Source: a virus. From it: DNA of 45,574 bases. The notes under the pieces were generated by a model, which saw only the letters and a program-made list of their open reading frames with translations, did no database searches and was not told the DNA's origin. The stretch lies in IMG/VR virus record IMGVR_UViG_3300045988_139688; one strand, written 5' to 3'. A program made the position numbers and the translations under genes. This document shows positions 14,456 through 32,312 of the stretch, piece after piece. Every line of letters begins with the position of its first letter. The stretch's first letter is position 1.

Positions 14456-14556
14456 TAGTTTAAATTCGAAAGAGTTACAACACTTCACACTGAGACACTT
14501 CAAGATAGGCTAGCTCTTATCTTGTGTGATAATAATTAAATCGGGAGGAATGCATA

Positions 14557-14790: not shown

Positions 14791-14819
14791 TCAAGAATCA
14801 TACAAGGAGGAATTTTAAA

Positions 14820-15374
14820 ATGTCAATAACTGTTAACCCATATGACATAAACGATACATGTAGAGTGTATCAGAGTTTAATGCACGGACTCATAATGAGA
14901 TACCCTGAATTCAAGGCTCTCGACACCTATTTGAAAGAACATCACTTCAAAGACCAGCCTGCATCTACCAAATACCATCTTAACATATCTGGAGGTCTTC
15001 TGTTACACTCTGTTAATGTAGCTCTTGTCCTTGATAAGCTGACTTCAGAACTCAATCTTCAGTGGCAACGTGCCGAAAGCCCAATTATTGTTGGTCTGTT
15101 TCATGACCTCTGTAAGCTTGATGCTTATCAACAAGACCTTGATGGATTTACATACAACGAAGACCAGCTTATCAAGGGTCATGGTGACAAATCAGTCATG
15201 GTGTTGAGCCAATTTACAACCTTGACCGAGGAAGAAGTTCTTTGTATTCGCTATCACATGGGAGCATATGAGACTGATAGCTGGAAGCAATTTGATTCAG
15301 CTATCAAGAGATACCCGAATGTGTTATTCACTCATACAGCTGACATGATAGCAAGTAAGCTCTGGGAGGATTGA
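14820..15374 (+). CDS. HD-domain phosphohydrolase (candidate dNTP/dNMP hydrolase)
   Basis: ATG 14820 after AAGGAGG. Metal-ligand pattern H...HD...H...D: KYHLN..LLLHS, GLFHDLCK, KGHGDKS, IRYHMG. Confidence 0.7.
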   Translation: MSITVNPYDINDTCRVYQSLMHGLIMRYPEFKALDTYLKEHHFKDQPASTKYHLNISGGLLLHSVNVALVLDKLTSELNLQWQRAESPIIVGLFHDLCKLDAYQQDLDGFTYNEDQLIKGHGDKSVMVLSQFTTLTEEEVLCIRYHMGAYETDSWKQFDSAIKRYPNVLFTHTADMIASKLWED

Positions 15375-16429: not shown

Positions 16430-16923
16430 ATAGGGCACATGGAATATTTAACTATCTGAATTTGCTGGATTTAGCACACAGCTATGCTAAGGCAGAATCA
16501 GGTTGCTGTAAAGTGACAGTTGGTAGTGTTATAGTTGAGGACAAGCAAAACCTAAGAATACTTGCTTTTGGTGCAAATAAAACTCTGCCAGTCAATTGCA
16601 AGAGCAAGGGTTGTTTAAGAATCCAGAAATATGGTAATGATGACAAAACTCATCGTAACCCTGACGACTGTAGGGCAATACACAGCGAGATTGCTGCCAT
16701 AGCAGCTGCAGCCAGACAAGGTATTTCTTTGGAGGGGGCAACGATTGTTGTTACAAGATACCCCTGTGAAGCTTGTGCAAGAGCCATTGTAGAAGCTGGA
16801 ATACAAAAGGTTGTGTATGGTAGAGAGCAAACGATGTCACAATACAGCTATGATATCTTTAAATCTGCGAAAGTAACAGTAATACACTGTTCTGATTGGA
16901 TAGAACAAGACGCAATAAACTAA
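16426..16923 (+). CDS. dCMP deaminase (ComEB/Dctd family)
   Basis: Zinc motifs HSEIAAI and PCEACARAI with correct spacing; 165 aa. Confidence 0.85.
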   Translation: MNRAHGIFNYLNLLDLAHSYAKAESGCCKVTVGSVIVEDKQNLRILAFGANKTLPVNCKSKGCLRIQKYGNDDKTHRNPDDCRAIHSEIAAIAAAARQGISLEGATIVVTRYPCEACARAIVEAGIQKVVYGREQTMSQYSYDIFKSAKVTVIHCSDWIEQDAIN

Positions 16924-16935
16924 GGAGGTACACAT

Positions 16936-17283
16936 ATGAATTTAACAGAACAACAGATTAACACCTTGGAAGAAGCTCGTAGAGTTTATGGTAATACAGC
17001 TCAGTTACTGGTATCAATCGAAGAACTCAATGAGCTGGCTTGTGTGGTTGCTAAATTTCCAAGATATGATACAGAAGAGGAAGCACGAGCGAAGCTTCAC
17101 CAGAAGGCATTGGACGAAGTTGCTGACGTCTACATTGTTCTTAACCACATTGAGACTATTCTTGGACTTGAGATGTCAGAAATTGCAAGCAGAATTGCAA
17201 GCAAGATAGACCGAGTCAATCGCTGGGTCAGCACAAATGATAAGTTCAGTCAAACACTTGTAGACAGAAACGTGGTGGAATAG
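16936..17283 (+). CDS. MazG-like all-alpha nucleoside triphosphate pyrophosphohydrolase
   Basis: 115 aa. EELNELACVVAKF ... ALDEVADVYIVLNHI matches the E-x-x-E ... E/D-x-x-D helical pattern of the small MazG family. Confidence 0.7.
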   Translation: MNLTEQQINTLEEARRVYGNTAQLLVSIEELNELACVVAKFPRYDTEEEARAKLHQKALDEVADVYIVLNHIETILGLEMSEIASRIASKIDRVNRWVSTNDKFSQTLVDRNVVE

Positions 17284-17284
17284 C

Positions 17285-19213: not shown

Positions 19214-19225
19214 GGTGATGATATA

Positions 19226-19555
19226 ATGAAACTCAAGACAGTTTTCAAAATTTGCAAGAATTTGGCCAACAAGCAGCTCAAAGCAAACCCGACGCAAGGC
19301 TTTAAGGTTGAAAATGAACACGTATACCTTAAAGATGTTATCCAAGAACTTGACTTATTAACAGGCTGGTGCTATCCTGGAGAATTGGATGTGCAGCAAA
19401 TTGTGCGTTGTAAAAATTGTAAACATTACAAGAAGTTCAAGTCTAAAAACCCATACAACAGAAAAGGTTTCATATACATGTGTAAGTGTACCCGAACGCC
19501 AACTAAACCTGAATTCTATTGCGCACACGGAGAAGACAAGAGAGATATTGTTTAA
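19226..19555 (+). CDS. Cys-rich small protein
   Basis: 109 aa. RCKNCKHYKK...CKC...YCAHGE, a motif common in Firmicutes phage replication modules. Confidence 0.65.
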   Translation: MKLKTVFKICKNLANKQLKANPTQGFKVENEHVYLKDVIQELDLLTGWCYPGELDVQQIVRCKNCKHYKKFKSKNPYNRKGFIYMCKCTRTPTKPEFYCAHGEDKRDIV

Positions 19556-19572
19556 TGAAATGAGGTGTTACT

Positions 19573-19764
19573 ATGACAACAAATAAACAACCTGCCATTT
19601 TTGATGATAGGGCACTTGAAGTTCTCAGAGAAGCAAAAGCCTACGGAAAGCATGGGTCTTACAGGGATTATGAAACCTACAAATGCAAGCTCTATAATTT
19701 GGGGCTAGATGCTAAATCACTGGACGGTGCACTACGCACCTTATCTAACATCTTGCAGGTGTAA
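19573..19764 (+). CDS. Hypothetical protein
   Basis: 63 aa with an RBS (gaggtg). Confidence 0.6.
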   Translation: MTTNKQPAIFDDRALEVLREAKAYGKHGSYRDYETYKCKLYNLGLDAKSLDGALRTLSNILQV

Positions 19765-19766
19765 TC

Positions 19767-20123
19767 ATGAAGAGTCTAAATGAACAACAAGGTACAACTA
19801 TATCAGAACTCGAAGCTGCCTTGGCAGTTTGCAGAAAACTGCTCCAAGCTAAGCTGAGCGAAGGAGCAAAAGGAATCGTATTTGCCAAAGGTAAACCAAA
19901 TCAAGTTAAAATGACCTATAAGAAAGCTTATGCGGTGTTGAAAGAGCTAGAAGCCTATTTTGGCTATAAAGGATGCGTCAGTTTCGGAATCTGTAAGACA
20001 TGTACGAAATTTGATACAACAAAATTTCAAGACAAGCGGTTTGGCTACTGCGGAAATACTATGAAGCATATGTATGATACATGTGAAAAACACAGTAAAT
20101 CAGGAGGAGGATTTGGATTATGA
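19767..20123 (+). CDS. Cys-rich hypothetical protein
   Basis: 118 aa. ICKTCTKFD...YCGN...CEKH. Confidence 0.65.
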   Translation: MKSLNEQQGTTISELEAALAVCRKLLQAKLSEGAKGIVFAKGKPNQVKMTYKKAYAVLKELEAYFGYKGCVSFGICKTCTKFDTTKFQDKRFGYCGNTMKHMYDTCEKHSKSGGGFGL

Positions 20124-20347
20124 ATACCAAAATAAAAATTGAAATCTGCCCTAAGTGTCTTGGCACTGGTAAAATCAGACCAAAACAGCATCTTGTACAA
20201 ACTTCTTTGTATGACTCTGACTGGGTTCAAGACCAAGATTATGAGTGTCCAGAATGTCAAGGTTCAGGACGTGTAGTTGCAACAATCACACCTTACGTTG
20301 AAGACAAGGTGTTTGATTTGAATCATCAGGAGGTATCTCAAAAATGA
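20120..20347 (+). CDS. DnaJ-type zinc-finger mini-protein
   Basis: Two CxxCxGxG units: CPKCLGTGK and CPECQGSGR. Confidence 0.7.
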   Translation: MNTKIKIEICPKCLGTGKIRPKQHLVQTSLYDSDWVQDQDYECPECQGSGRVVATITPYVEDKVFDLNHQEVSQK

Positions 20348-22053
20348 GGTATGCTACAATTGATATTGAGACCACAGGACTGAATCGGTACAAAGACAAG
20401 ATAACCTGGATAGGAGTGGGCTTGGCTCAAGATACTAACAGTGATATTTCTAAGATGTTTATCTATGATGCAGATAGCCCAAAAGACATTCACAAATTCA
20501 AGAACCTTGTAAACAATCTGCACAAGCACAAAGTCAAGACTGTTTTTCAGAATGGCAAGTTTGATACCCTGTTCATCGAGGAAGCCCTAAGCATTAAGAT
20601 ACCGATTCACGAAGACATATTGCTAATGGGTACGGCTTATGACCTAGTTGCAGAACACGGACTGAAGAAGATGGCTCAACGGTATCTTGGTGTATGCGAT
20701 TGGGATATTTCAAAAAAGGAGAAGCTTGCAGGCAATTCTGATACTGTAGTCCCATATCTGAAAGATGATGTTACCTATTCTTGGCAACTGTTTAGATATT
20801 TTTTGGACAACATGACTGAACAACAGTTGAAAATCTATTACAAATTACTAAAACCAGCATATTTGACATACAGGGATATTGAACGTAATGGAGTGTACAT
20901 TGATTTGAAGAAGCTGAAATCAGTCCGCAAGACCTATGCAACTAGAGAAGCCCAATGCCTGAATAAGTTGAATGCTAAGTACAAGATAAACTGGAATAGC
21001 GCAGGTCAAATTCAAGAGGTGTTATTCAACAAAGAGAAAATGCCAATACTTGCAAAATCGGAGAAAACTGGTAAACCCTCTGCAAGTGCGTCTGTGCTGA
21101 AAAAACTGGCCAATAAGGGGTATGAAATACCTCAGCTTATCCTTGATTACAAGGCTGTTAACACCTTGAACAAGATGTTCTTGAGCCGTTGGGAGGGTGA
21201 TTTAGGTTCAGATTTGCGTATTCATCCTTCGTTCAATCTCACCAATGTTCGCACAGGGCGAACAAGTTGTCAAAATCCAAATCTACAACAAGTGCCGAGA
21301 AATCTTGATGTGCGAAGTTTGTTTAATGCCCCCGGAGGACGGCTATTTTTTGAGGCTGACTATTCACAGCTGGAATTGAGAATAGCTGCTGATTATGCTA
21401 ACGATAAGACTATGCTTGAGATATATCACAACAACGGTGATATACATACTACGACAGCCAAATTGATGACAGGCGGAAGAGAGCCAACCAAGGAAGAACG
21501 TGGTAAGGCTAAGGCAGTTAACTTTGGATTTTTGTATGGAATGTCAGCTCGCAAGTTTGTAGAATATGCCTATGACTCATATGGGGTAGTGTTCACGAGG
21601 TCAGAAGCTGAGACTTTCAGAAAGTTGTTTTTTGCCAAGTATAATAGGCTCTTGCCTTGGCATCATGAGCAAGAATTATTGTGTGAAGCTTTAGGCGGTG
21701 TTGCAAACAAGTTCGGCAGATTTAGGTCACTTCCAGACATCTATTCTAGCAACAAATTTGAACGCTCAGGAGCAGTCAGACGAGCTATTAATACCCCTGT
21801 ACAGGGAACAGGCTCAGATTTGCTTATCTCAGCAGTTACTCAAATCAATAAGGAGTTTAAACCCTATGGCTTGAAGGTTGTTGGCACAGTTCATGACTCT
21901 ATCCTTGGTGAATTCAATGAGAAGGATAGAGATTGGATTGTCCCAGAGATACGCAGAATCATGTTACACCCAAGAGTTCTTGATGATTTTGAAGTGGAAT
22001 TAAAAGTGCCATTGGAAGTTGATATCGGAGTTGGTCCTTGGGGTACTCATTAA
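20344..22053 (+). CDS. Family A DNA polymerase with 3'-5' exonuclease domain
   Basis: ExoI ATIDIETTGL. Pol motifs RTGRTSCQNPNLQQVP, DYSQLELRIAA, KAVNFGFLYGMS and VHDSI. Confidence 0.92.
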   Translation: MRYATIDIETTGLNRYKDKITWIGVGLAQDTNSDISKMFIYDADSPKDIHKFKNLVNNLHKHKVKTVFQNGKFDTLFIEEALSIKIPIHEDILLMGTAYDLVAEHGLKKMAQRYLGVCDWDISKKEKLAGNSDTVVPYLKDDVTYSWQLFRYFLDNMTEQQLKIYYKLLKPAYLTYRDIERNGVYIDLKKLKSVRKTYATREAQCLNKLNAKYKINWNSAGQIQEVLFNKEKMPILAKSEKTGKPSASASVLKKLANKGYEIPQLILDYKAVNTLNKMFLSRWEGDLGSDLRIHPSFNLTNVRTGRTSCQNPNLQQVPRNLDVRSLFNAPGGRLFFEADYSQLELRIAADYANDKTMLEIYHNNGDIHTTTAKLMTGGREPTKEERGKAKAVNFGFLYGMSARKFVEYAYDSYGVVFTRSEAETFRKLFFAKYNRLLPWHHEQELLCEALGGVANKFGRFRSLPDIYSSNKFERSGAVRRAINTPVQGTGSDLLISAVTQINKEFKPYGLKVVGTVHDSILGEFNEKDRDWIVPEIRRIMLHPRVLDDFEVELKVPLEVDIGVGPWGTH

Positions 22054-22073
22054 GATTACGAGTCAATCTGGAT

Positions 22074-22139
22074 ATTAATAAATTGTTAATAATTAATTTA
22101 CCAAAAATACTTTATTGTACTCCATAAAAGTAGTATAAT
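22074..22139 (+). promoter_or_regulatory. Conserved promoter cassette, copy D
   Basis: attaataaaTTGTTAATAAttaaTTTACcaaaaaTACTTTATT-gtactccataaaagt-AGTATAAT; nearly identical to copy B. Confidence 0.65.
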
Positions 22140-22176
22140 GATAATCAGAAAGGAAAACAAGGAGGAGTTCAATCAG

Positions 22177-22338
22177 ATGAGATTGATTGATGCAGATGAG
22201 CTTGAAAGTTTGATTGTAAAACAAGCTGGTGAACTCAAAATCAAAGTCTTTGACCCAAGTGTTAATCTGATTTTGCAGGATATCAAAAATGCTCCAACCA
22301 TTGAGATTAAATCCAACAACCCCGACAAAAGCAGATAA
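22177..22338 (+). CDS. Small hypothetical protein (MRLIDADEL...)
   Basis: ATG 22177 after AAGGAGGAG; 53 aa. The longer track ORF starts inside the promoter -10. Confidence 0.6.
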   Translation: MRLIDADELESLIVKQAGELKIKVFDPSVNLILQDIKNAPTIEIKSNNPDKSR

Positions 22339-22362
22339 CTTAACAATCAGGAGGTAATAATT

Positions 22363-22593
22363 ATGTTCTGTTCTATGACAAGAGGTTACTGGGTGTTCCA
22401 TCGTGGAAGATGTCTTTGGGCATGCAAATTCTGGGTAGGAACTCCTGAAGACTTGGTAGCTTATATTCTTGACAAGATAGTTTTGTTCTTGGAAGCTCTC
22501 AAGCCGCAGAATATGATTAACAGATACACAAACAAGATTTTCAAGGTTTGTGGACGTGAAACAAATCACACAGGTAAGAACTTCCACAAGTAA
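22363..22593 (+). CDS. Hypothetical protein
   Basis: 76 aa with an AGGAGG RBS. Confidence 0.6.
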   Translation: MFCSMTRGYWVFHRGRCLWACKFWVGTPEDLVAYILDKIVLFLEALKPQNMINRYTNKIFKVCGRETNHTGKNFHK

Positions 22594-22615
22594 TACCTAC
22601 GGAGGTAAAACAGCT

Positions 22616-22813
22616 ATGGCAAATTTTAATTATGAGTGGTGGACAGTTTCAGTCAAATGTCTAACAGGTACATATCTATATGAACTCAAGGCAAAGAATA
22701 AGCAGAATGTTATCCATCAAATCAAAAAGCTGGAAAAAGAAGACTTCAGCATAGTAGAAATTCTCTGGGACACGTTAAAGCTTGATAGGGTTGGCTACCA
22801 AAGATTAAGCTAG
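22616..22813 (+). CDS. Hypothetical protein
   Basis: ATG 22616 after GGAGGT (MANFNYEWW...); 65 aa. Confidence 0.6.
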   Translation: MANFNYEWWTVSVKCLTGTYLYELKAKNKQNVIHQIKKLEKEDFSIVEILWDTLKLDRVGYQRLS

Positions 22814-22859
22814 GGTATTCAGTTTAAACAGCTTGTACAAATAAACTCACTTGCTTAAT

Positions 22860-22926
22860 AGTTTACGAATTGTTAATAAATTGTTTATCAAATATACTTT
22901 ATTTGGTGCTCAATAAGTAGTATAAT
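22860..22926 (+). promoter_or_regulatory. Conserved promoter cassette, copy E
   Basis: agtttacgaaTTGTTAATAAattgTTTATcaaatATACTTTATT-tggtgctcaataagt-AGTATAAT. The first 20 nt are identical to copy A. Confidence 0.65.
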
Positions 22927-23021
22927 AAGGATGTAAACGAAAGAACAATTTAAATATGACATTCACGAGATAACGTGGTATATTATGAAATCAAAATTAA
23001 TCTTTTCGGAGGTACAAAATC

Positions 23022-23150
23022 ATGGAAAATCAGTATTCAAAATTCGAGTATTCAAGGACAGAAAACCCAAGTGTTCTGAACGGAATCAGAGACGAAGAGA
23101 AAAGCAGCACACGCTGCTTGGCTCGCAAAGTATTTCAACGTGATTTTTGA
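23022..23150 (+). CDS. Short ORF with strong RBS (42 aa); possibly the 5' part of 23140..23454
   Basis: GGAGGT lies 8 nt upstream of ATG 23022. The ORF stops at 23148..23150 while the +1 frame is open from 23080. Confidence 0.4.
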   Translation: MENQYSKFEYSRTENPSVLNGIRDEEKSSTRCLARKVFQRDF

Positions 23151-23454
23151 AATCGAGTGCGCAGAGCTTGAGGGTACGCCAAAACAGATTGACTACGCAA
23201 ACGATATCAGACGCAAGACCCTCTTCTGGAGAGTTGATTCCGTAACCGAGTACGCTGTTGATAAGTGCAAGGGTGCTGACAAGAAAGGTTATGACGTTGC
23301 AGTAGGTTTTGAAATCGTAGCAGCTGAACTGAATAAGCACGGCATGAACATAGAAACCATGAGTGACCTGGTTAAACAACTGATGATACACCAAAACAAA
23401 AAGCTGATAAACGAAACATCAGCCAAGAAAATAATCGAACGTGAAACAATATGA
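23140..23454 (+). CDS. Hypothetical protein (GTG start without RBS, or frameshift continuation of 23022 ORF)
   Basis: 104-aa ORF. The motif GTPKQIDYANDIRRK recurs in many Firmicutes phage orphan proteins. Confidence 0.55.
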   Translation: MIFEIECAELEGTPKQIDYANDIRRKTLFWRVDSVTEYAVDKCKGADKKGYDVAVGFEIVAAELNKHGMNIETMSDLVKQLMIHQNKKLINETSAKKIIERETI

Positions 23455-23624
23455 GGTGAGCCTGCAACCCTGCAGAACGTCAAGGCAGTAACTGAAAGAA
23501 TGTGTGTTGAATACATTGCATGATAAATTCCCCTGATGAGTCTTTGAAAATTAAGACGAAACCGCTGAGAAGCGGTTGGGAATATCACCCAAATAACTAT
23601 ATTATATTACAGGAGGTCATTATT

Positions 23625-24128
23625 ATGGCAACAAAGACAAAGGTAAACACCACATTTCTCAAGACTCTCAAAAAGGGCACAACAGTTATTCTTTGTGCAT
23701 TCACAGGCATGAAGATTGGAGTCAAGGAGATTATTGCAGCTGACAAAGCTACAGTAACTATCGAAACAAACAACGGTGAAGCGGTATTTGACCGCAAGAC
23801 AGGCAAGCAGATTGACCCTGAGCCAAAAGCTGAGAGATTTGCAAACTATCTCACAGAGGACGATGGTTCATTTGTACCACCTACACGTAAGCCAAAAGCA
23901 AAGAAGGCAGAGCCAAAGGCTGAAGTTGAAGAGGAAGATGCAGATGATGAAGAGGACGAGGAAGAAAAGAAGCCTGCACCAAAGAAGAAGGCAACAAAGA
24001 AGGCTGCAAAGAAGGCTGCAAAGCCAGCTGAAAAGAAGTCATCAAAGAAGCCTGAGCCTGAAGAGGAAGAAGAGTGGGAAGAGGACGATGATGATGATGA
24101 CGATGATGATTTTGAGGAAATTGACTAA
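23625..24128 (+). CDS. KAFTGM-domain protein with Lys-rich/acidic block tail (paralogous domain 2 of 3)
   Basis: ATG 23625 after AGGAGG. N-terminus GTTVILCAFTGMKIGVKEII...ERFANYL. The tail alternates basic and acidic blocks: KPKAKKAEPK / EEEDADDEEDEEE / KKPAPKKKATKKAAKKAAKPAEKKSSKK / EEEEEWEEDDDDDDDDDFEEID. Confidence 0.8.
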   Translation: MATKTKVNTTFLKTLKKGTTVILCAFTGMKIGVKEIIAADKATVTIETNNGEAVFDRKTGKQIDPEPKAERFANYLTEDDGSFVPPTRKPKAKKAEPKAEVEEEDADDEEDEEEKKPAPKKKATKKAAKKAAKPAEKKSSKKPEPEEEEEWEEDDDDDDDDDFEEID

Positions 24129-24153
24129 TTACAAATACCATACTGCGGCGAAA

Positions 24154-24180
24154 AGAGGAGCTTGACTGCTCCTCTTGCTT
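24154..24180 (+). terminator. Hairpin, possible intrinsic terminator
   Basis: AGAGGAGC-ttgact-GCTCCTCT followed by tgctt (weak T tract). Confidence 0.4.
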
Positions 24181-24189
24181 AATGGGTTA

Positions 24190-24209
24190 CACCTATATAC
24201 ATATAGGTG
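24190..24209. other. 20-nt near-perfect palindrome upstream of the recombination genes
   Basis: CACCTATAT-ac-ATATAGGTG. Confidence 0.5.
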
Positions 24210-24274
24210 CAGCGGTGACAAACCCCGCATCAAAGAACAGAGTCAAGCAATAACCGCATGAAAGAGGGTGAAAA

Positions 24275-25252
24275 ATGAACATCAGCTACAGTCGTGTTAG
24301 CTCCTATTTGAGCTGCCCTTACAAGCACTATCTTGGATATGTTCAAGGATTGAAGCTCAAGAAGCCTGAACGTCCGTTATATTTTGGCACAGATTTTCAT
24401 AGGCTTTTGGAATTGAGACATAAACCAGAAGAACTGAAAAAAGCCAAGCAGGATATTGGAAGCAAATTCTATGAACTCAAGCCACAATTTCAAGCAGAGC
24501 TTGGAGATGATTACATATGGGACTTGGCAACAATATTTGCAGACTATCAAGACATCTACAAGGAAAGCCCGCAGCCAACTGTAACAGAACAAAAATTCCA
24601 AATAAAGCTTGGAACTTACAAGGGTGAAACGATATACTTCAAAGGCTTTATCGATGAACTGTATAAGTACAAGAGCAAATCAACAGGCAAAAAATCAATT
24701 AAGATTGGTGAGCACAAGACATTTACAAGAAAACCTGACCAAAGTCTTCTTGTAATGAATACACAGAAATGTCTTTACTCAAAAGCCTGTGAAATTTTGT
24801 ATGGCATTTTACCTGACACGGTAATTTGGGACTATGTACACAGTAAACCTGCAAGTGAGCCAATTTGGTTGGAAAAATCACAACGATTCAGTGCTGCTAA
24901 AAGTGACAAAATCACACCTTATAGCTGGCGAAGAGCCTGTGACAAAAAAGGTATCACAGACGAGAAAATACTGTCAGAGGGAGACAAATACTCAGCAAAT
25001 ATCTCCAATTTCTTCTTCCGTTGCGAATTGGAAGTGCTCCCTGTTATGGTAGAAGACGTCTGGTCAGGTTTTGTTTATCAGGCTAAGCAGATAGTAAGAC
25101 AAGGCAATCAAAACAGGACTAAAAACATAACCCCAAGTTGTGCTTGGTGTAGCTATCAACCAATCTGCTATGCTGAGTGCACAGGAGCTAATGCACAATA
25201 CCTCATTGACAAGGACTACACGAGATACGAAAGAAAGGAGGAATCTGAATGA
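24275..25252 (+). CDS. PD-(D/E)XK exonuclease, Cas4/RecB-like with Fe-S Cys cluster
   Basis: N-terminus SYSRVSSYLSCPYKHYL. Nuclease motifs GFIDELY...IGEHKT. C-terminal Cys cluster CAWCSYQPICYAEC. Confidence 0.8.
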   Translation: MNISYSRVSSYLSCPYKHYLGYVQGLKLKKPERPLYFGTDFHRLLELRHKPEELKKAKQDIGSKFYELKPQFQAELGDDYIWDLATIFADYQDIYKESPQPTVTEQKFQIKLGTYKGETIYFKGFIDELYKYKSKSTGKKSIKIGEHKTFTRKPDQSLLVMNTQKCLYSKACEILYGILPDTVIWDYVHSKPASEPIWLEKSQRFSAAKSDKITPYSWRRACDKKGITDEKILSEGDKYSANISNFFFRCELEVLPVMVEDVWSGFVYQAKQIVRQGNQNRTKNITPSCAWCSYQPICYAECTGANAQYLIDKDYTRYERKEESE

Positions 25253-25989
25253 GCAGCTATTTGGATGGCATCGTAGACATATCAGAACTGGGTCAACATA
25301 AACTCGTCGTACTGTATGGTAAATCCAATACAGGCAAAACAGAAGTCGGTTCAACATTTCCGAAGCCAATGTTGTATGCTTGTATAGGGGATGATGGTTC
25401 TAACACAATTCAAGGCAAATCAGGCATCAAAGCAAAGAAGCTGAATAACCTTGATGAATGTAAAGGTTTTTTGAACGAGCTTGTTAAGAAGAAATCTGCA
25501 GGATTTTCATCAGTGTTCATTGATACATTTTCGATGGTTACCAATATTTGGATTGATGAGAATGCTGTTCAAAAGAACAAAAAGATGACCCAACAGATGT
25601 GGGGTGACTTAAAGACTGAGACCGAAGAGCTCATCAGGTTGGCTCATAAGCTAGCCAATTATTGCTGGGTGATTTTGAGCTGTCATGAAGCAACAGATGT
25701 AATCGAGGGTATGGAAGATGAGATTTTGCCAGATGTACGTCCATCTACAACCAAAGGTGCAAGAACCTATTTGGAGGGTATGGCAAACTATGGTTTACAT
25801 ACAACTCGGCTTGAAAAATCTGTTATCAAAGACGGAGTCGAACAAACAGTTGTGCGATATGCAGCACACATTGGTCCAAACCCATTTTATTGGACTAAAC
25901 TACAGATATCAAAGGGCATAAAAGTGCCGAAGCTTGTAATTAATCCAAGCTACGAGAAACTTATTAAAATCATTGAAGGAGGACATTAA
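25249..25989 (+). CDS. Sak4-like RecA-fold ATPase (AAA_24-type annealase)
   Basis: Walker A VVLYGKSNTGKTEV and Walker B-like VFIDTFS. Position between the exonuclease and SSB is typical. Confidence 0.75.
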   Translation: MSSYLDGIVDISELGQHKLVVLYGKSNTGKTEVGSTFPKPMLYACIGDDGSNTIQGKSGIKAKKLNNLDECKGFLNELVKKKSAGFSSVFIDTFSMVTNIWIDENAVQKNKKMTQQMWGDLKTETEELIRLAHKLANYCWVILSCHEATDVIEGMEDEILPDVRPSTTKGARTYLEGMANYGLHTTRLEKSVIKDGVEQTVVRYAAHIGPNPFYWTKLQISKGIKVPKLVINPSYEKLIKIIEGGH

Positions 25990-25991
25990 TC

Positions 25992-26678
25992 ATGAGCAGA
26001 AGAAGAAAGATTGATATGACAAATGTTGAGTCATTTGTAAGATGTACAGAGGGTGAGCATATTGCTAAGCTCGTTGAGGTTCAGGAAAACACAACTCAGG
26101 CAGGAGATGACATGCTTACTTGTGTATTTGAAGTTATCAAAGGCAGCAGCAAGGGTGCAAGAGTGTACGATAATTTTGTTTTGACAGACAAGGCTCTGTG
26201 GAAACTGAAACAGCTGCTTCAGGCTTTCGGCATCAAAGCAGATGGTAAGATTGTTCTTGACCTTGATAAGCTGGTTGGAAAGATTTGTAACATCACAGTG
26301 TACCATGAAGAGTACAACGGCAAGCCCAAGGCAAGAATTGATGAGTATACAGTTATTGAGTCTGCCGATGATGAAGAAGATGAAGACTTCGATGAAGATG
26401 AGGACGAAGAAGTTGAAGAAGAGAAGCCTGTTAAAAAACCAGCTAAATCTACAAAACCAAAGACCAAGAAGAAGCCTGAGCCTGAGCCTGAAGAGGAAGA
26501 GGACGATGATGATTGGGATGAGGATGACGACGAGGAAGAGGACACTCCAAAGAAGCCTGTGAAAAAGCCAGCTAAGAAAGCTACAAAGCCAAACAAGAAG
26601 AAAACTACAACCAAGAAGCCTGAGCCTGAAGATGATGACGAGGATTGGGATGATGACGAGGATTGGGAGGAAGACTGA
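25992..26678 (+). CDS. DUF669-type phage single-strand DNA-binding protein with long polyampholyte tail
   Basis: The N-terminal about 125 aa form an OB-like region (FEVIKGSSKGARVYDNFVLTDKALWKLKQL). The tail alternates acidic and Lys/Pro blocks and ends DDDEDWDDDEDWEED. Confidence 0.65.
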   Translation: MSRRRKIDMTNVESFVRCTEGEHIAKLVEVQENTTQAGDDMLTCVFEVIKGSSKGARVYDNFVLTDKALWKLKQLLQAFGIKADGKIVLDLDKLVGKICNITVYHEEYNGKPKARIDEYTVIESADDEEDEDFDEDEDEEVEEEKPVKKPAKSTKPKTKKKPEPEPEEEEDDDDWDEDDDEEEDTPKKPVKKPAKKATKPNKKKTTTKKPEPEDDDEDWDDDEDWEED

Positions 26679-26684
26679 GTAATT

Positions 26685-26712
26685 CAAGGGGTGTAAACAC
26701 CCCTTGATTTTT
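26685..26712 (+). terminator. Intrinsic terminator/attenuator ahead of the modification block
   Basis: CAAGGGGTG-taaa-CACCCCTTG followed by ATTTTT. The RBS of the next gene follows immediately. Confidence 0.6.
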
Positions 26713-26726
26713 AAGGAGGAAGTCAT

Positions 26727-27725
26727 ATGGACTTATACAAGATTCCTGGAGATACTGGTGGAGATTGGAGACTTCAGAAATTTGTAGAATATCAACACGA
26801 AGTTCCAAGCATACATTACAGGGTATTGGGTGAGTACATAAAAAAATACCAAATCAATAAAAACAGAGCTGTTCTTATGTGTTGGTATATGTCTTGCACA
26901 TATAACGAAGTAACATGTGTATTGATGAATGAATTGATTAGCCCTAAGCTATTAAAAGACAAGACTTATGTCAATAAATTCTGGAAACAATATAAGGCTG
27001 TTCTTGATTTTGGGTCAAGCCGAAAGTACGCTAAGAACATGGACTGGATACCAGAGTTATTGCCTGAGTTCTTCAAACATGTACGAGGGAAGCCCTATGA
27101 TTGGCTAAAGACATTTCCTGATGGCAAGATTGGGTATTCTCAGATATATTCAGAAATTTCTAATCTCAAATATGTCGGAAGATTTGCTACTGATTTGTTT
27201 ATGGAATCCTTGTTGTATCTAAATGATTATTTTGGAACTAACTACATAGAACCAGAAAAACTCGATTGGAAGAACTGCAGTAACCTTACATCTGGTTTGC
27301 TTAACATCTTCTATAAGGATGAAGAAGCAAATTTGTTTGATAAAACTCACAAACTGCCTGTAGAAGAGGATTTGCTTAATGAGTATCTTTCTAAGGTCAA
27401 AGATGCAATATATCAGACTTATCCTGAACAAAGAGATGATGGTATCAATTTGTTTGTTGGAAAGATATGTAGCTTTAGGAATTTGTTCAAAAATTCAAGA
27501 TACGGAGGGTTCCATCATGATAGAGAACTAGGGGTGCTAAAAGCTTATGAGAAAGCTCTTCCTGAGTATTCTTATCTTTGGAGAAGATTCTATGGGCTGA
27601 GACGAGATATGTTTCCCAAGCACCTACTGGGTGAGCTAAATGGCTGGAACGGAATTAGAAGGGAACGCAAAAAGTTGTTTCTCTCTCAAGGACTTACAGG
27701 AGTAGAGATGAATGACCATGAATAG
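26727..27725 (+). CDS. All-helical orphan coupled to the P-loop kinase (candidate 5-HMUDK helical module or aGPT-Pplase-like transferase)
   Basis: 332 aa with an AAGGAGG RBS. It ends 10 nt before the kinase start and has no enzymatic motif I can name. Confidence 0.4.
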   Translation: MDLYKIPGDTGGDWRLQKFVEYQHEVPSIHYRVLGEYIKKYQINKNRAVLMCWYMSCTYNEVTCVLMNELISPKLLKDKTYVNKFWKQYKAVLDFGSSRKYAKNMDWIPELLPEFFKHVRGKPYDWLKTFPDGKIGYSQIYSEISNLKYVGRFATDLFMESLLYLNDYFGTNYIEPEKLDWKNCSNLTSGLLNIFYKDEEANLFDKTHKLPVEEDLLNEYLSKVKDAIYQTYPEQRDDGINLFVGKICSFRNLFKNSRYGGFHHDRELGVLKAYEKALPEYSYLWRRFYGLRRDMFPKHLLGELNGWNGIRRERKKLFLSQGLTGVEMNDHE

Positions 27726-27735
27726 GAGAGTTGCT

Positions 27736-28362
27736 ATGAAATTTATTACAAACAGGGTCATTGTAAATATCAGGGGAACAAACGGCTCTGGAAAAAGCTC
27801 AATCCCATTGAGTATGTTAGATGACCCAGAGCAGTTTATAGTCAAGAAGCCCTATAAAGGCAAGCAAATCAAGATTTTGACTGTATTTCCAACATATAAC
27901 TGGGTTGCTTTAGGAGCTTATGAAAAGGGCAAGACTTGTGGTGGAATGGATACATTACCTAACAACGAATTAACACAAAAGGCTTTTTGGTATGCCCTCA
28001 GAAAATATCCTGAATACAACTTGTTGATGGAAGGAATTATTGCCTCAACAATATACTCAACATACGCAAAGCTTTTTGCAGAAACTCAGACAAAATACCC
28101 TGACACAAAGGTTGTTGTATTGCATTTGACCCCTGGATTACACACATGTCTAAAACGAATACAAAATAGAAATGGTGGCAAGCCTATCAAAGAAAATCTT
28201 GTCGCAGATAAGATTAAGGCGATTAACCGAGCTGTGGACAAGTTTGAACCAGAAGTCAAGGTTATTAAATGGAATAACACAGGTTCCATGAAGAAATATC
28301 GGCACCAGAAGTTGATTTATCAAGTTGAAGAAATTATTGAAGACAACATAATCCCATTTTAA
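27736..28362 (+). CDS. P-loop kinase (candidate 5-hydroxymethylpyrimidine DNA kinase)
   Basis: ATG 27736 after AGGAG. Walker A IRGTNGSGKSS and Walker B-like NLLMEG. About 208 aa; distinct from the Tmk-like kinase downstream. Confidence 0.5.
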   Translation: MKFITNRVIVNIRGTNGSGKSSIPLSMLDDPEQFIVKKPYKGKQIKILTVFPTYNWVALGAYEKGKTCGGMDTLPNNELTQKAFWYALRKYPEYNLLMEGIIASTIYSTYAKLFAETQTKYPDTKVVVLHLTPGLHTCLKRIQNRNGGKPIKENLVADKIKAINRAVDKFEPEVKVIKWNNTGSMKKYRHQKLIYQVEEIIEDNIIPF

Positions 28363-28378
28363 TCAGGAGGATACAGCT

Positions 28379-28546
28379 ATGAGAATACGAAGTTCTGAAT
28401 ATAAAGCCCTAAAAGAGTCTATTGAACTCATCGCAAAGGGAATAATCAAATCTGCTCAGGTGTCAGAGAGCATTAAAGCCTACAAAGTTCCACAATCTAA
28501 AGGCTACACAATAAGGATTGATATAAGGGTCAAAAATGATGAGTAA
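28379..28546 (+). CDS. Small hypothetical protein (55 aa, below the track cutoff)
   Basis: ATG 28379 lies 8 nt after CAGGAGG. Peptide MRIRSSEYKALKESIELIAKG...RVKNDE, stop at 28544..28546. Confidence 0.5.
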   Translation: MRIRSSEYKALKESIELIAKGIIKSAQVSESIKAYKVPQSKGYTIRIDIRVKNDE

Positions 28547-28650
28547 ACCTATCCTGTTGCATTCCGAGCTATTAAAGACCAATTTGTTTGGAAATTTTGG
28601 AAGCAACAAGTAAAAACGTAACATAGACTAAATTAAGGAGGAGTTCTATT

Positions 28651-29133
28651 ATGCTGATAGTTCTTGAAGGCTGCGACGGAAGCGGAAAAACAACCATTGC
28701 AAATTTGATTGCTCCGCTTATCGGAGCAGAGATAATCCATTGTACAGCTGAGACACCAAATACCTATGAGTGGTTTATTGGAATCTTGGATAAATCCAAG
28801 GAAGTAAACATAATCGCAGACAGATTCTGCTATGGGCAATTCGTATACCAAGACCCTTGTGACCGAAGTTTGAATGAAGTTGCATTGAGAAGTCTTGAAA
28901 GCATGCTAAAAGCAGCAAATACCAAGGTTGTTTATGTTGATGCTGATTCAAGAATCATAAAACATAGGCTCAACAAACGTGGAGAATTAACAGAGATACC
29001 TGTAGAAGAGATACAACGACGCTATAGGCAAGTGTTTACTGAATCTACAATGGATGTTTATGTAATCAAGACTGATGAACCGAGTATGTGCATATCTAAA
29101 TTTGCACAGAGAGGAGGATTAAACCATGGTTAA
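28651..29133 (+). CDS. Thymidylate-kinase-type dNMP kinase
   Basis: MLIVLEGCDGSGKTT is the Tmk P-loop signature (EGxDGxGKTT); 160 aa. Confidence 0.75.
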   Translation: MLIVLEGCDGSGKTTIANLIAPLIGAEIIHCTAETPNTYEWFIGILDKSKEVNIIADRFCYGQFVYQDPCDRSLNEVALRSLESMLKAANTKVVYVDADSRIIKHRLNKRGELTEIPVEEIQRRYRQVFTESTMDVYVIKTDEPSMCISKFAQRGGLNHG

Positions 29134-29830
29134 TTCTAACATTGTAATAACAGCTAAGACTGCTAATGAGGCTTGGGAACAATGGTGGACCATTCTTCAA
29201 ACAGATATACCTGAGCAGCCACAAAATTCAAGAGATGGAGCTGTGCATAACGAGGTCTTAAATGCAGTTACAATCATTGAAGACCCTACCAGAAGCATTG
29301 TAACCAGCTCAATACGCAAAATGCCAATGAGATATGCCATCGGAGAAATGCTCTGGTACCTGTCTGGCAAATCAGAGCTTTCGGAGATACAGAAGTACAC
29401 CAAGAACTGGGATAGGATGTCAGACGATGGAAAGACTGTAAATTCCAACTATGGCTGGTGTATCAAGCACAAATATGGTTTTGACCAATGGGAATTTGTG
29501 AAGCGGTTACTTACAAATGCCCCTGAGACTAGGCAAGCAGTCATCCACATTAAAACAGCCGATAATACACCTAGCAAGGATGTTAATTGTACAGTTTGCT
29601 TACAGTTCTTCCTTCGGGATGGAAAGCTATATCTGACAACTTACATGAGGTCTAATGACCTCTGGATGGGCTTTCCATATGATGTATTTCAGTTCATGAA
29701 CATGCAGGTTTTGATGGCTATGGAACTGCATGCTGACCTAGGCACGTATACCCATATAGCAGGGTCTTTACATCTATATGAGAGAGATTTTTTGAAGGCT
29801 TTGGACGGCTCAAATGTAGCTTCTAGGTGA
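29126..29830 (+). CDS. ThyA-family pyrimidine deoxynucleotide hydroxymethylase (Asp at the Asn177-equivalent position)
   Basis: IGEMLWYLSG, NSNYGW, catalytic Cys in VNCTVCLQFF, and YMRSNDLWMGFPYD. Cys-to-Arg spacing of 20 is the same as in E. coli ThyA. Confidence 0.75.
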   Translation: MVNSNIVITAKTANEAWEQWWTILQTDIPEQPQNSRDGAVHNEVLNAVTIIEDPTRSIVTSSIRKMPMRYAIGEMLWYLSGKSELSEIQKYTKNWDRMSDDGKTVNSNYGWCIKHKYGFDQWEFVKRLLTNAPETRQAVIHIKTADNTPSKDVNCTVCLQFFLRDGKLYLTTYMRSNDLWMGFPYDVFQFMNMQVLMAMELHADLGTYTHIAGSLHLYERDFLKALDGSNVASR

Positions 29831-29838
29831 CTTGTCCT

Positions 29839-30189
29839 ATGAAACCAATTATGCAAAAGGTACTTGTAAAGGTACTGAGAAATGGAGACATTCGTTGGGT
29901 TCATTTTTCAGCTGTGCCTAAAGAACTGTATGACAGCTTCTTTAGGCTCACTGAGACTGAGCCGTTGGATTTGAACGCATACTTGTCTAAATGGTGTAAA
30001 GAAGATTTTGATACATCCTTGAACATGGGTAAATACGATGACATTTATCACCTCAAGCTAGCAATAAACGAAAGATTTCAAGCTGAATATGCTGAACTAT
30101 ACGGAGCAGCAGGAATGCCTGAAATCAGGGGCTGGGTTCGAATGTGGCTATCACAGCATATGAGAGAGGAGATTGCAAAATATGAATGA
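29839..30189 (+). CDS. Hypothetical protein
   Basis: ATG 29839 lies 8 nt after AGGTGA; 116 aa. Confidence 0.6.
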   Translation: MKPIMQKVLVKVLRNGDIRWVHFSAVPKELYDSFFRLTETEPLDLNAYLSKWCKEDFDTSLNMGKYDDIYHLKLAINERFQAEYAELYGAAGMPEIRGWVRMWLSQHMREEIAKYE

Positions 30190-30514
30190 TGTAACCAACA
30201 AACTACGGATTATAGCAGTTGATTTTGATGGAACTCTTGTCTATGACAAATTCCCTGATATTGGTGCACCAAGAGCCGAAATATGGGATAAAGTCAAAAA
30301 AGAACAGCTTAATGGTTCAAAAATCATCCTGTGGACTTGCAGAAACGGGGAAGCCCTTAAAGCAGCAGTTGAATTCTGCATCAACCGAGGACTACATTTT
30401 GATGCTATTAATGAAAATCTTGATGAAATCAAGACTTTATATGGGGGAGATACCAGAAAGGTATTTGCTGATGAATACTGGGATGATAAAGCTCTTTATA
30501 TGGGAGGGTTGTAA
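30182..30514 (+). CDS. HAD-superfamily phosphatase-like protein
   Basis: Motif I IIAVDFDGTL (DxDGT); small single-domain size (110 aa). Confidence 0.55.
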   Translation: MNDVTNKLRIIAVDFDGTLVYDKFPDIGAPRAEIWDKVKKEQLNGSKIILWTCRNGEALKAAVEFCINRGLHFDAINENLDEIKTLYGGDTRKVFADEYWDDKALYMGGL

Positions 30515-30889
30515 TTGGCACTTGAGAAATCCATAACCAATTCCATTATCGCATTCATTAAACGACAAGGCGGTCAAGCTGAAAAAGTTATGGGGACAGC
30601 AGTCCAATCAGGTAGACCTGACATAAATGCTTGCTATAAGGGCAGATGCTTGAGGATTGAGGTCAAAACACCTGACCACAAGAATACTGCAAGCAAGAAA
30701 CAATCCATGAATTTGGCACGTTGGAGACGAGCAGGAGCAATTTCAATGACTGTATACAGTAAACAAGCAGTCATCTACTTTCTCATCTGTTATTGCCAAG
30801 GAGAAACAGGAATACTGACCTACAGTGAATCTAATGGCTGCTTATCCATAGCAGACATACCAGAATTGGAGAGCTATGAAAAAACCTAA
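30515..30889 (+). CDS. VRR-NUC domain nuclease
   Basis: TTG start 6 nt after GGGAGGG. GRPDINACYKGRCLRIEVK matches the D...ExK nuclease core. Confidence 0.7.
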   Translation: MALEKSITNSIIAFIKRQGGQAEKVMGTAVQSGRPDINACYKGRCLRIEVKTPDHKNTASKKQSMNLARWRRAGAISMTVYSKQAVIYFLICYCQGETGILTYSESNGCLSIADIPELESYEKT

Positions 30890-32312
30890 GTACATATTCA
30901 AAACAACACCTTGGGAGCATCAAATCAAGGCATTGAATTATCTGTATCAAAGAGATGTGGCTGCACTGTACACAGATATGGGTACGGGTAAAACCAAGGT
31001 GATGATTGACCTGATAATTAATCGCAGATTCAGACGAGTTCTAATCACCTGCACTAGCAAAGGGTGTGACGTGTGGGAACGAGAGTTTAAAAAACACTCA
31101 GACTTACAACCAGAAATTGTCCTAAATTTGTCGGGAGTACCTACCCCAAAGAAAGTATCAACCCTAAAAAGTCCTTTTTATAAGCAAATTTTGAACAACA
31201 AAATGAACACCCTCATTATCATATGTAATTATGAGAGCGTTTGGAGAGAGCCTTTTGCCAGTCTATTGTTAACTAAACGACTTGGAATAGATTGTGTCAT
31301 CTGTGATGAGAGTCATCGTATTAAATCTCCTGGTAGCAAGTGTTCAAAATTCCTAACTAAGATTGGTAAGCGTGTACCATATCGATATTTGGTAACAGGT
31401 ACACCTCTGGCGGAGAACCCTATTGACATATATGCTCAATATCGGTTTTTAGACCCAAAAATCTTTGGTACTCGTTTGTCAGATTTTCAAGACAGGTACG
31501 AGAATCTGGATGCTGCAAGAACAATGCAAGTCGGTTATCGAGTACTGGACTCAAAACACCCTTACAAGAATTTAAACGAGTTGCAAGAAAAGATGTTTAG
31601 CTGTGCATTTAAAGCGGAAAGCTCACTCAAGCTACCAGCTCAGCGGAATATCTGTATCACATTCAAAATCTCTGCTCAAGCCGAGAAAACTTACAAGGAG
31701 TTAACAAAAGAGGGTGTCTTGGAATATGACGAAGGCACAATCGAAGTTGAAAATGTTTTAAACCTGAGTCAACGTCAACAACAAATCGTTTCAGGGTTTA
31801 TTCCTGTAATGTCTGATTGCAACGAGATGAACTTTATTGACATTGATAAAAGTCGCACCGAAGCTTTGGAAGAATTGCTGCAAGGTCTGTCTAAAGAAGA
31901 GCCTGTGGTAGTATTTGCCAGATTCAAAAGAGACCTCAAAAACATCAAATCTGTTTGTCAAAAGCTTCATCGAGGTTACTCAGAGCTTTCAGGCAATCTG
32001 GACACAGAAGCAGATTGGCAAGAGGGGAAAACCCAAATTCTTGGAGTACAATATACCTCTGGCTCAGAGAGTGTAGACTTTACAAAAGCTCGTTACTGTA
32101 TATACTACAGCTACACAACCAGTTTAGCTCAATATCTGCAAAGCAAGAAGAGGATACACCGTCCAGGTCAAACAAGACCTGTTGTATATTACCATATAAT
32201 TGCTAAGCTTCGCCAAGGTATATCAGTGGATGAAAAAATTGTAAGAGCCTTGAAAGCAAAGAAAGATGTTGTTGATTTTTTGATGAATTTTGAACAAAAA
32301 GAAAAGCCCTGA
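30876..32312 (+). CDS. SNF2-family DEAD/H helicase
   Basis: Motif I DMGTGKT, motif II VICDESHRIK, and C-terminal helicase motifs (QYLQSKKRIHRPGQ). Confidence 0.85.
   Translation: MKKPKYIFKTTPWEHQIKALNYLYQRDVAALYTDMGTGKTKVMIDLIINRRFRRVLITCTSKGCDVWEREFKKHSDLQPEIVLNLSGVPTPKKVSTLKSPFYKQILNNKMNTLIIICNYESVWREPFASLLLTKRLGIDCVICDESHRIKSPGSKCSKFLTKIGKRVPYRYLVTGTPLAENPIDIYAQYRFLDPKIFGTRLSDFQDRYENLDAARTMQVGYRVLDSKHPYKNLNELQEKMFSCAFKAESSLKLPAQRNICITFKISAQAEKTYKELTKEGVLEYDEGTIEVENVLNLSQRQQQIVSGFIPVMSDCNEMNFIDIDKSRTEALEELLQGLSKEEPVVVFARFKRDLKNIKSVCQKLHRGYSELSGNLDTEADWQEGKTQILGVQYTSGSESVDFTKARYCIYYSYTTSLAQYLQSKKRIHRPGQTRPVVYYHIIAKLRQGISVDEKIVRALKAKKDVVDFLMNFEQKEKP

Follow-up and report, generated by a model that had tools for sequence, protein, structure and literature searches.

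A predicted dCMP hydroxymethylase encoded with a DNA nucleobase kinase and transferase pair in an uncultured phage lineage

The IMG/VR virus record IMGVR_UViG_3300045988_139688, a stretch of 45,574 nucleotides (nt) that we refer to as the window, contains an open reading frame (ORF) for a protein of the thymidylate synthase (ThyA) fold. This locus raises the question of which pyrimidine the phage modifies. A first-pass annotation of the window had placed Asp at the residue that discriminates between deoxyuridine monophosphate (dUMP) and deoxycytidine monophosphate (dCMP), although the neighbouring genes looked oriented towards uracil or thymine. It had left two readings: (a) DNA based on 5-hydroxymethylcytosine (5hmC), or (b) a route in which hydroxymethyl-dCMP (hm-dCMP) is deaminated to hydroxymethyl-dUMP (hm-dUMP) and 5-hydroxymethyluracil (5hmU) enters the DNA. 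Judging from its residues, the protein is very probably a dCMP hydroxymethylase of the phage T4 gp42 type, and the genes with which it is in real tension are those of a 5-HMUDK-family DNA nucleobase kinase (HMUDK kinase) and an amino-acid:DNA transferase (AADT)-like protein encoded 5' of it.

The ORF (29126..29830) has a GAGGAGG Shine-Dalgarno sequence 7 nt upstream, and its start overlaps the stop of a Tmk-like ORF (28651..29133) by 8 nt. The translation includes KDVNCTVCLQFFLRDGKLYLTTYMRSNDLWMGFPYD, which supplies Cys155, Arg175 (+20), and Asp186 (+31), and the spacing from which the first-pass annotation had argued is therefore correct. HMMER alignment with solved thymidylate synthases placed Asp186 in the column of E. 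coli Asn177 ('gfpyd' on 'gvpfn' / 'gnpfn'), and MAFFT put it in the same column. The MAFFT set contained E. coli ThyA, T4 gp42, SPO1 gp29, VPE25, and the homologues from SP-10, PaMx11, a ViI-like phage, and an Agathobaculum phage. The numbering of the E. coli ThyA sequence that was aligned reproduces the published list of W80, Y94, A142, L143, C146, H147, Q165, S167, C168, D169, G173, and N177 (PMC13326640). At the Asn177 column T4 gp42, MilA, VPE25, and the window enzyme have Asp, whereas ThyA and four dUMP hydroxymethylases have Asn. Thus, alignment with ThyA and with dCMP and dUMP hydroxymethylases upholds Asp, not Asn, at this site. The resemblance of NSNYGW and CT..Q..(L/I)RD to T4 gp42 that had been noticed is likewise seen in the MAFFT alignment, where the ThyA-fold residues E74, Y109, C155, R175, H216, and Y218 are invariant (equivalent to Glu58, Tyr94, Cys146, Arg166, His207, and Tyr209). 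Asp at the N177 site is accompanied by Thr at the His147 site in 120/120 of the closest database homologues of the window enzyme and in 44/44 D-type homologues of the fetched loci, so Asp186 is not there by chance.

The identity of this residue matters because Asn or Asp at the 177 site sets the preference for dUMP or dCMP, as determined by mutagenesis in three systems (PMC8670742, PMC13326640, PMC5175136). An N177D change makes dCMP the preferred substrate instead of dUMP, and the two positions that best separate cytosine-modified from unmodified contigs are 177 and 147 (PMC8670742). In E. coli numbering, the window enzyme has D143, C146, T147, M165, R166, S167, D169, G173, and D177, identical to both T4 gp42 and VPE25, and W80 and N168 also match. 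When 19 active-site positions were compared, all Asp-type sequences shared W80, T147, M165, S167, D169, G173, and D177 with T4 gp42 and VPE25, and all except one had Asn at position 168. By contrast, the four dUMP hydroxymethylases (SPO1, SP10, PaMx11, and ViI-like) and the Asn-type sequences deviate at the linked positions 80, 147, 165, and 177. Asn177, Asn147, and a residue other than Trp at position 80 occur in 37/37 Asn-type sequences and Asn165 in 32/37, with Gln, Thr, or Ile in the rest. In place of this dUMP-hydroxymethylase state at 177, 147, 165, and 80, the window enzyme has D, T, M, and W.

Residues outside this linked set agree. The window enzyme has an acidic residue, Asp152, at the L143 site and retains D169 as Asp178; an acidic L143 site accompanies hydroxymethyl products, and flavin-dependent 5-hydroxy-dCMP synthases are recognisable by D169N (PMC13326640). 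Arg136 and Ser176 correspond to R126' and S167, which, instead of Lys and Ala, mark deoxyribose substrates (PMC5175136). The C-terminal extension of dUMP hydroxymethylases is missing, the protein being 234 aa long versus 346-437 aa. Every published diagnostic position in the window enzyme reads dCMP hydroxymethylase. Its best solved relative is MilA, a CMP hydroxymethylase (7.6e-30), compared with about 1e-15 for ThyA and 4e-12 for T4 gp42. MilA and BcmA are the best-scoring solved structures and share the numbering of Asp186, Cys155, His216, and Tyr218, but they act in nucleoside antibiotic biosynthesis whereas the window enzyme is encoded in a phage replication context.

Other identities for the enzyme were weighed against these residues. 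The ThyA fold and the conserved catalytic residues would also suit a thymidylate synthase, a dCMP methylase, or a 5-hydroxy-dCMP synthase, yet we find any of these scarcely credible. The protein scores 68.9 bits against NCBIfam thymidylate synthase models with equivalog cut-offs of 108-576, and Leu143, His147, and Asn177 are replaced, with Asp in place of the water-excluding Leu143. It also ends about 40 residues short of ThyA, and an ordinary thymidylate synthase, the case in which the first-pass reading would have fallen, is rejected. The 5-hydroxy-dCMP synthases of the RB69 gp48 type have Asn at the D169 site, where Asp178 is retained here, and dCMP methylase was rejected on the diagnostic residues. 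A MilA-type CMP (ribo) hydroxymethylase was rejected as well, since Lys133' and Ala176, which select ribose in MilA, are Arg136 and Ser176 in the window enzyme, as in deoxyribose enzymes. It is very improbable that the enzyme uses dUMP despite the Asp and that the cluster is one for ordinary thymidine hypermodification. The context does look like that of SP10 and ViI, with a DNA kinase gene directly 5' of a ThyA homologue, and the gene of the Agathobaculum phage, 63% identical, is publicly annotated as a 'deoxyuridylate hydroxymethyltransferase'. That annotation is automatic, however, and the cytosine state is seen at four linked active-site positions and not at a single one. Such an enzyme would also contradict the mutagenesis cited above, and proven dUMP hydroxymethylases all have Asn together with a C-terminal extension of 110-200 aa that is missing here.

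The suspected conflict between a dCMP-type enzyme and DNA-level kinase and transferase genes is real. The HMUDK kinase scores 92 bits against PF18748 (cut-off 27), shares 40% identity with the SP10 gp186 kinase domain and 32% with the ViI-type kinase, and has an intact P-loop. The stop of the transferase gene overlaps the kinase start. The 332-aa transferase itself has no Pfam match, sequence searches of it and of the HMUDK_hel protein encoded elsewhere in the window against the PDB returned nothing, and an hhalign comparison of the transferase family with PaMx11 gp46 was insignificant (prob 0.33). Its link to AADTs comes from a fold search and from transitive Pfam matches through sister versions. 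An AlphaFold 2 model (pLDDT 84) has as its best PDB folds 8z2m/8z2n, which are PaMx11 gp46 (PUGT, a 5-PmdU glycinyltransferase; prob 0.99, TM 0.50/0.57), with HhH DNA glycosylases as the next-best matches. Genes at the same position on related contigs match PF18724 ADDT at 2e-17 to 1e-5, and PaMx11 gp46 matches this family at 1.6e-27. MAFFT places Cys248 of the window transferase in the column of Cys247, the nucleophile of PUGT. At the sites of the PUGT metal ligands Glu243/Thr244 the window transferase has Val/Gly, whereas some versions from the lineage retain the pair; in PUGT this pair holds a metal that contacts thymine O4. There are approximately 400 homologues of the 332-aa transferase with more than 100 invariant positions, and many are fused N-terminally to an HMUDK kinase.

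Kinase and transferase pairs of this kind make hypermodified thymidines in SP10, PhiW-14, ViI, M6, and PaMx11 (PMC8989533). The window shares with this pathway a PF18748 kinase beside a PUGT-fold transferase with a conserved Cys, near a ThyA-fold hydroxymethylase, and also the HMUDK_hel protein. It differs in that the hydroxymethylase is dCMP-type rather than dUMP-type, the kinase falls in a separate clade, and the transferase has diverged beyond the reach of Pfam and, in this version, has no Glu/Thr metal ligands. The fusions differ too; in many homologues of the window pair the transferase is N-terminally fused to the kinase, while the SP10 kinase instead has a C-terminal HMUDK_hel domain. 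No source of 5hmU was found, as the only ThyA homologue of the window is dCMP-type. A TET/JBP domain was also absent from the scanned replication-module and modification-cluster proteins (+ strand, 11770..32312), a scan that left the structural genes outside.

The smaller nucleotide genes do not indicate which base is used. The Tmk-like kinase had been read as pointing to uracil or thymine, but it scores 51 bits against the NCBIfam dTMP kinase model, short of the cut-off of 83. Among isolates it is closest to YorR-type kinases of SPbeta, and a similar gene adjoins the Asp-type enzyme of Enterococcus phage VPE25. We rejected it as diagnostic of the base. The dCMP deaminase and the MazG-like protein that had been annotated are both present (Table 1), and the deaminase fares no better as a pointer to uracil or thymine. 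An Asp-type ThyA homologue, a dCMP deaminase, and a nucleoside triphosphate (NTP) pyrophosphatase make up the T4 gene set, and MetaGPA reports such a trio, with an NTP pyrophosphohydrolase, on cytosine-modified contigs (PMC8670742). The MazG-like protein has no Pfam or NCBIfam match, and tblastn gave only weak matches to hypothetical proteins of Bifidobacterium phages; its gene adjoins that of the deaminase across the lineage. The HAD-type phosphatase encoded 3' of the hydroxymethylase, a conserved arrangement, is 41% identical to SPO1 gp30.2, which is encoded beside gp29. It was considered as a dTMPase marker of thymine replacement and rejected, with homologues widespread in unmodified Herelleviridae (those of Listeria, Enterococcus, and B. 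cereus).

A scan of IMG/VR with the kinase alignment gave 72 loci. Every one that had a ThyA homologue had either a short Asp-type or a long Asn-type enzyme. The Asn-type class (346-437 aa) occurs in SP10-, ViI-, and M6-like contexts. The Asp-type class (221-291 aa) occurs on approximately 29 distinct uncultured-phage contigs with one shared synteny: transferase, kinase, (Tmk), hydroxymethylase, p120, HAD, p124, SNF2. In a neighbour-joining tree the Asp-associated kinases form one clade that is sister to the SP10-like kinases, and the window kinase belongs to this clade, which is seen only with Asp-type hydroxymethylases. No isolate phage had a kinase of this clade, the best matches being 41% in SP10-like and Lysinibacillus phages, and none of 50,697 phage records matched 7 kb around the hydroxymethylase in a megablast search.

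A second scan, anchored on the family A polymerase, gave 15 loci of the lineage with a hydroxymethylase, and the enzyme was Asp-type in 15/15. The dCMP deaminase and MazG genes were found in 14/15, whether or not the locus has the DNA kinase; the remaining locus (L105) is cut short on its upstream side. What varies is the slot between the DUF669 gene and the hydroxymethylase gene. It holds a kinase in 10/15 loci, and in nine of these a transferase as well. The tenth (L098, 15491-17078) has only a divergent kinase (PF18748 1.9e-8) and a dUTPase/dCTP-deaminase (DCD)-like gene. Among the five kinase-less slots, three have TAGT glycosyltransferases (PF20691, 41-44 bits, cut-off 27.5), one of which (L106, 15816-18116) also has a radical-SAM/SPASM enzyme. 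A fourth (L100, 15895-17251) has a radical-SAM/SPASM enzyme and DUF1599 ('nucleotide modification associated domain 1'), and in the fifth (L102) there are only small unannotated ORFs with nothing recognisable. Close relatives of the hydroxymethylase (56-70% identity) also occur in other phages without any kinase. Thus, the pairing is conserved across an uncultured lineage, and the kinase and transferase form one interchangeable cassette in a variable slot. By analogy with the T-even phages, the lineage looks like a system in which a conserved pre-replicative module (dCMP hydroxymethylase, Tmk-like kinase, NTP pyrophosphatase, and deaminase) provides a single hydroxymethyl base and the hypervariable slot supplies enzymes that decorate it after replication. 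The TAGT family has been linked to phage TET/5hmC clusters (PMC8256090); HMUDK, AADT, and TAGT are absent from the MetaGPA entries.

The slot differs even between near-identical genomes. Sibling contigs with 94-98% nucleotide identity (L094-L097) have an intact 276-aa gene between a conserved 55-aa ORF and the Tmk-like gene. The product of this gene shows full-length homology to a TAGT glycosyltransferase of L103 (PF20691, 3e-11); tblastn of it against phages was uninformative. In the window only a remnant is left, with the blastn deletion junction at 28580-28582, and L008 shares the same clean 731-bp internal deletion. In L008 (7688-8602) and L094-L096 (L094 6943-7875), a 311-aa transferase, 28% identical, replaces the 332-aa one between flanks that are 94-100% identical. 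The motifs are GKICSFRNLF and FHHDRE in the 332-aa version and ESNLCFFRKLF, YYADR, and FGPH in the 311-aa version. This looks like the swap of a specificity cassette.

One further cluster stands apart from these loci. The Agathobaculum phage mentioned above, AB434P2 (L001, 769-5582), encodes next to its Asp-type enzyme a Tmk-like kinase, a choline/ethanolamine-kinase-like protein, a cytidylyltransferase, and two further proteins of 328 and 361 aa. This cluster could use a CDP-activated donor to decorate 5hmC in a different way.

Among isolates, the nearest clade with informative data is that of Enterococcus phages VPE25 and VFW, whose DNA resists bisulfite conversion at C (PMC4999554). They have a short Asp-type ThyA homologue (42-45% identity to the window enzyme) encoded beside a T4-like beta-glucosyltransferase and, as in the window, an adjacent Tmk-like gene. 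Their decorator is this glucosyltransferase, with no HMUDK or AADT, and they have a different backbone of 86 kb with Pol III alpha. A comparison with T4 itself is also instructive. The window enzyme has the same fold as T4 gp42, is close to it in size (234 vs 246 aa), and matches its active-site signature exactly, with D177, T147, and D143 among the shared residues, but it is only about 25% identical to it, MilA and homologues of Firmicutes phages being closer. The T4 pathway (gp42, gp1, gp56, cd, and glucosyltransferases) has the same accessory set of a deoxynucleoside monophosphate (dNMP) kinase, an NTP pyrophosphatase, and a dCMP deaminase, and the lineage has in common with it the logic of one hydroxymethyl base and interchangeable post-replicative decorators. 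By contrast, the dNMP kinase and pyrophosphatase of the window are small proteins unrelated to those of T4, the window contains no phage thymidylate synthase, and its decorators are a nucleobase kinase and an AADT-like protein rather than glucosyltransferases.

We favour 5hmC as the base in the DNA because of the cytosine-type signature of the enzyme, the bisulfite-resistant cytosines of VPE25 and VFW, and the presence in the slot of the TAGT family of TET/5hmC clusters. Of the two original readings the evidence therefore favours (a), while (b) is still a live rival that we do not prefer. Going one step further, we lean modestly towards 5hmC entering the DNA and being phosphorylated and aminated there. 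This builds on the residue signature, the family assignments, the transferase fold, and a pairing conserved in one lineage; from these we infer the activities, the base in the DNA, the use of a donor molecule, and the role of the MazG-like protein. The hydroxymethylase would convert dCMP and methylene-tetrahydrofolate to 5-hydroxymethyl-dCMP, and the overlapping mini dNMP kinase with the host nucleoside diphosphate kinase would yield hm-dCTP, which the family A polymerase would accept so that 5hmC is incorporated. The MazG-like protein is a candidate dCTPase, and the dCMP deaminase may, as in T4, provide the dUMP from which the host makes dTMP. Once the DNA is replicated, the 5-HMUDK-family kinase would phosphorylate the hydroxymethyl group of 5hmC in DNA, and the AADT-like protein, with Cys248 as candidate nucleophile, would replace the phosphate with an amine or hydroxyl donor to give an aminoalkyl- or aminoacyl-methylcytosine. 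The mechanism of such transferases is attack of a Cys at C6, loss of phosphate, and an exocyclic methylene. This chemistry is plausible on cytosine by analogy with cytosine-5 methyltransferases, which use the same mechanism on that base. We give about an even chance to the wider proposal that the lineage re-targeted 'thymidine' hypermodification to cytosine. It would then have the first 5hmC DNA kinase (making 5-phosphomethyl-dC), the first amino-acid/amine:DNA transferase acting on a cytosine derivative, and a new class of aminated 5-methylcytosines, with donor specificity swapped through alternative transferases.

Several points weigh against a decorated 5hmC. Commercial 5-HMUDK leaves 5hmC DNA unphosphorylated and is specific for 5hmU (PMC6457204), and P-loop kinases and AADTs are treated as machinery of thymidine hypermodification in the literature, that of 2026 included (PMC13229309, PMC8989533). 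Literature searches turned up no report of 5-phosphomethylcytosine, of a DNA kinase for 5hmC, or of an AADT whose substrate is a cytosine derivative. The lineage has no cultured member and no DNA chemistry on record, and all Asp-type/HMUDK loci come from this one phage lineage, so the repeated pairing amounts to a single evolutionary event. Sequence comparison gave no specificity for either the dNMP kinase or the MazG-like protein. Further, several AADTs of the lineage keep the Glu/Thr(Ser) pair, which would suit a uracil-type base, and the deaminase found in 14/15 loci could convert hm-dCMP to hm-dUMP. The last two points fit a route in which hm-dCMP is deaminated to hm-dUMP, which passes through the Tmk-like kinase so that 5hmU enters the DNA and the kinase and AADT act on their usual substrate. 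In that case the window kinase would do what characterised HMUDKs do, all of which act on 5hmU only, among them the proven 5hmU kinase domain of SP10 gp186 to which it is 40% identical. Nonetheless, we consider this route unlikely. The deaminase is as frequent in kinase-less members and in unrelated Asp-type phages, and belongs to the cytosine sets of T4 and MetaGPA, so it is not specifically tied to the kinase. Since Asn-type dUMP hydroxymethylases are common in Firmicutes phages, including those with the sister kinase clade, a detour through hm-dCMP has no obvious advantage. Moreover, hm-dCMP would stay exposed to the dNMP kinase as well, and no such pathway has been reported.

We think it rather improbable that the DNA contains plain 5hmC, glycosylated in siblings, and that the pair acts on another target, acts on a tiny fraction of sites, or is a decaying cassette. 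The high variability of the slot fits with this, with swaps even between genomes that are 95-98% identical, and so do the recent loss of the TAGT gene from the window by deletion and the missing Glu/Thr pair of its AADT-like protein. However, both ORFs are intact, and the P-loop and candidate catalytic Cys are conserved. The number of homologues, their invariant positions, and the recurrent kinase fusions indicate purifying selection on a joint function.

The dCMP-type hydroxymethylase and the kinase and transferase pair are both of known kinds, and we found no paper that describes the combination. Surveys of HMUDK contigs named the neighbouring ThyA homologues dUMP hydroxymethylases from context (PMC8989533). 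Whichever reading holds, annotating ThyA homologues beside HMUDK in this way is unsafe, and the residue signature (80, 143, 147, 165, 169, and 177) should replace context. If the favoured reading is true, phage DNA would contain a new family of cytosine hypermodifications, and the kinase would be a 5hmC-specific DNA kinase that could be used for labelling and mapping 5hmC as 5-HMUDK is for 5hmU. If the deamination route is true instead, it would be a new nucleotide-pool route to 5hmU. The lineage, which consists of gut Firmicutes phages, is abundant in human-gut metagenomes, and its variable slot is a natural experiment on how phage modification and host restriction evolve against each other.

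Table 1. Positions of the genes, gene remnant, and active-site codons discussed in the text (window coordinates; E. coli ThyA equivalents in brackets)
Feature	Position	Strand	Length	Matches and remarks
HD-domain phosphohydrolase	14688..15374	+	228 aa	Pfam HD 2.4e-4, slightly below cut-off; phrog_5889 9e-30
Stand-alone HMUDK_hel protein	15371..16429	+	352 aa	PF18723 1.6e-66
dCMP deaminase	16426..16923	+	165 aa	Pfam dCMP_cyt_deam_1 4.5e-18; PHROG dCMP deaminase 4e-33
MazG-like NTP pyrophosphohydrolase	16936..17283	+	115 aa	phrog_2245 (NTP pyrophosphohydrolase) 4e-12
Primase/helicase	17285..19213	+		
Family A DNA polymerase with 3'-5' exonuclease	20344..22053	+		Pfam DNA_pol_A 1.4e-81
Recombination genes	24275..26678	+		
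Divergent amino-acid:DNA transferase (AADT / aGPT-Pplase-like)	26727..27725	+	332 aa	
5-HMUDK-family P-loop DNA nucleobase kinase	27712..28362	+	216 aa	PF18748 HMUDK_HMUD1 4.1e-26
Conserved ORF between kinase and glycosyltransferase remnant	28379..28546	+	55 aa	Called; conserved in sibling contigs
TAGT-family glycosyltransferase remnant	28537..28633	+		First ~46 nt and last ~54 nt kept; 731 bp deleted internally
Minimal Tmk-like dNMP kinase	28651..29133	+	160 aa	Pfam Thymidylate_kin 2.7e-11
ThyA-fold dCMP hydroxymethylase (predicted)	29126..29830	+	234 aa	ATG start; PF00303 3.3e-24
Asp152 (L143) codon	29579-29581	+		
Cys155 (C146) codon	29588-29590	+		
Thr156 (H147) codon	29591-29593	+		
Arg175/Ser176 (R166/S167) codons	29648-29653	+		
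Asp178 (D169) codon	29657-29659	+		
Asp186 (N177) codon	29681-29683	+		
Small HAD-type phosphatase	30173..30514	+	113 aa	NCBIfam BT0820-type HAD phosphatase 1.2e-25
SNF2 helicase	30876..32312	+		

The HD gene is the first of a run of HD, HMUDK_hel, deaminase, and MazG genes, and the HMUDK_hel gene is translationally coupled to the HD gene and to the dCMP deaminase gene. PaMx11 gp50 and the SP10 gp186 C-terminal domain are homologues of the HMUDK_hel protein, which has no detectable relationship to the 332-aa transferase. The HMUDK_hel protein is kept in lineage members that have no HMUDK kinase (L100, L102, L106, and L113), so the Pfam name probably misdescribes its role.

Two kinds of repeat were also observed in the window. 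An 84-nt element occurs in five + strand copies that are 65-89% identical, at 11657-11740, 13966-14049, 14391-14474, 22075-22158, and 22862-22945, with the sequence AATTGTTAATAA...TTTAC..AAA..ACTTTATT...GTAGTATAAT. The element resembles a conserved phage promoter together with an upstream motif. Copies lie 5' of the HD/HMUDK_hel/deaminase run and of the block that ends in the modification genes. The second kind, GA-rich repeats at 23905-24127 and 26353-26677, encodes long Asp/Glu-rich acidic C-terminal tails of a 202-aa protein (23520..24128) and of the DUF669 protein (25992..26678).

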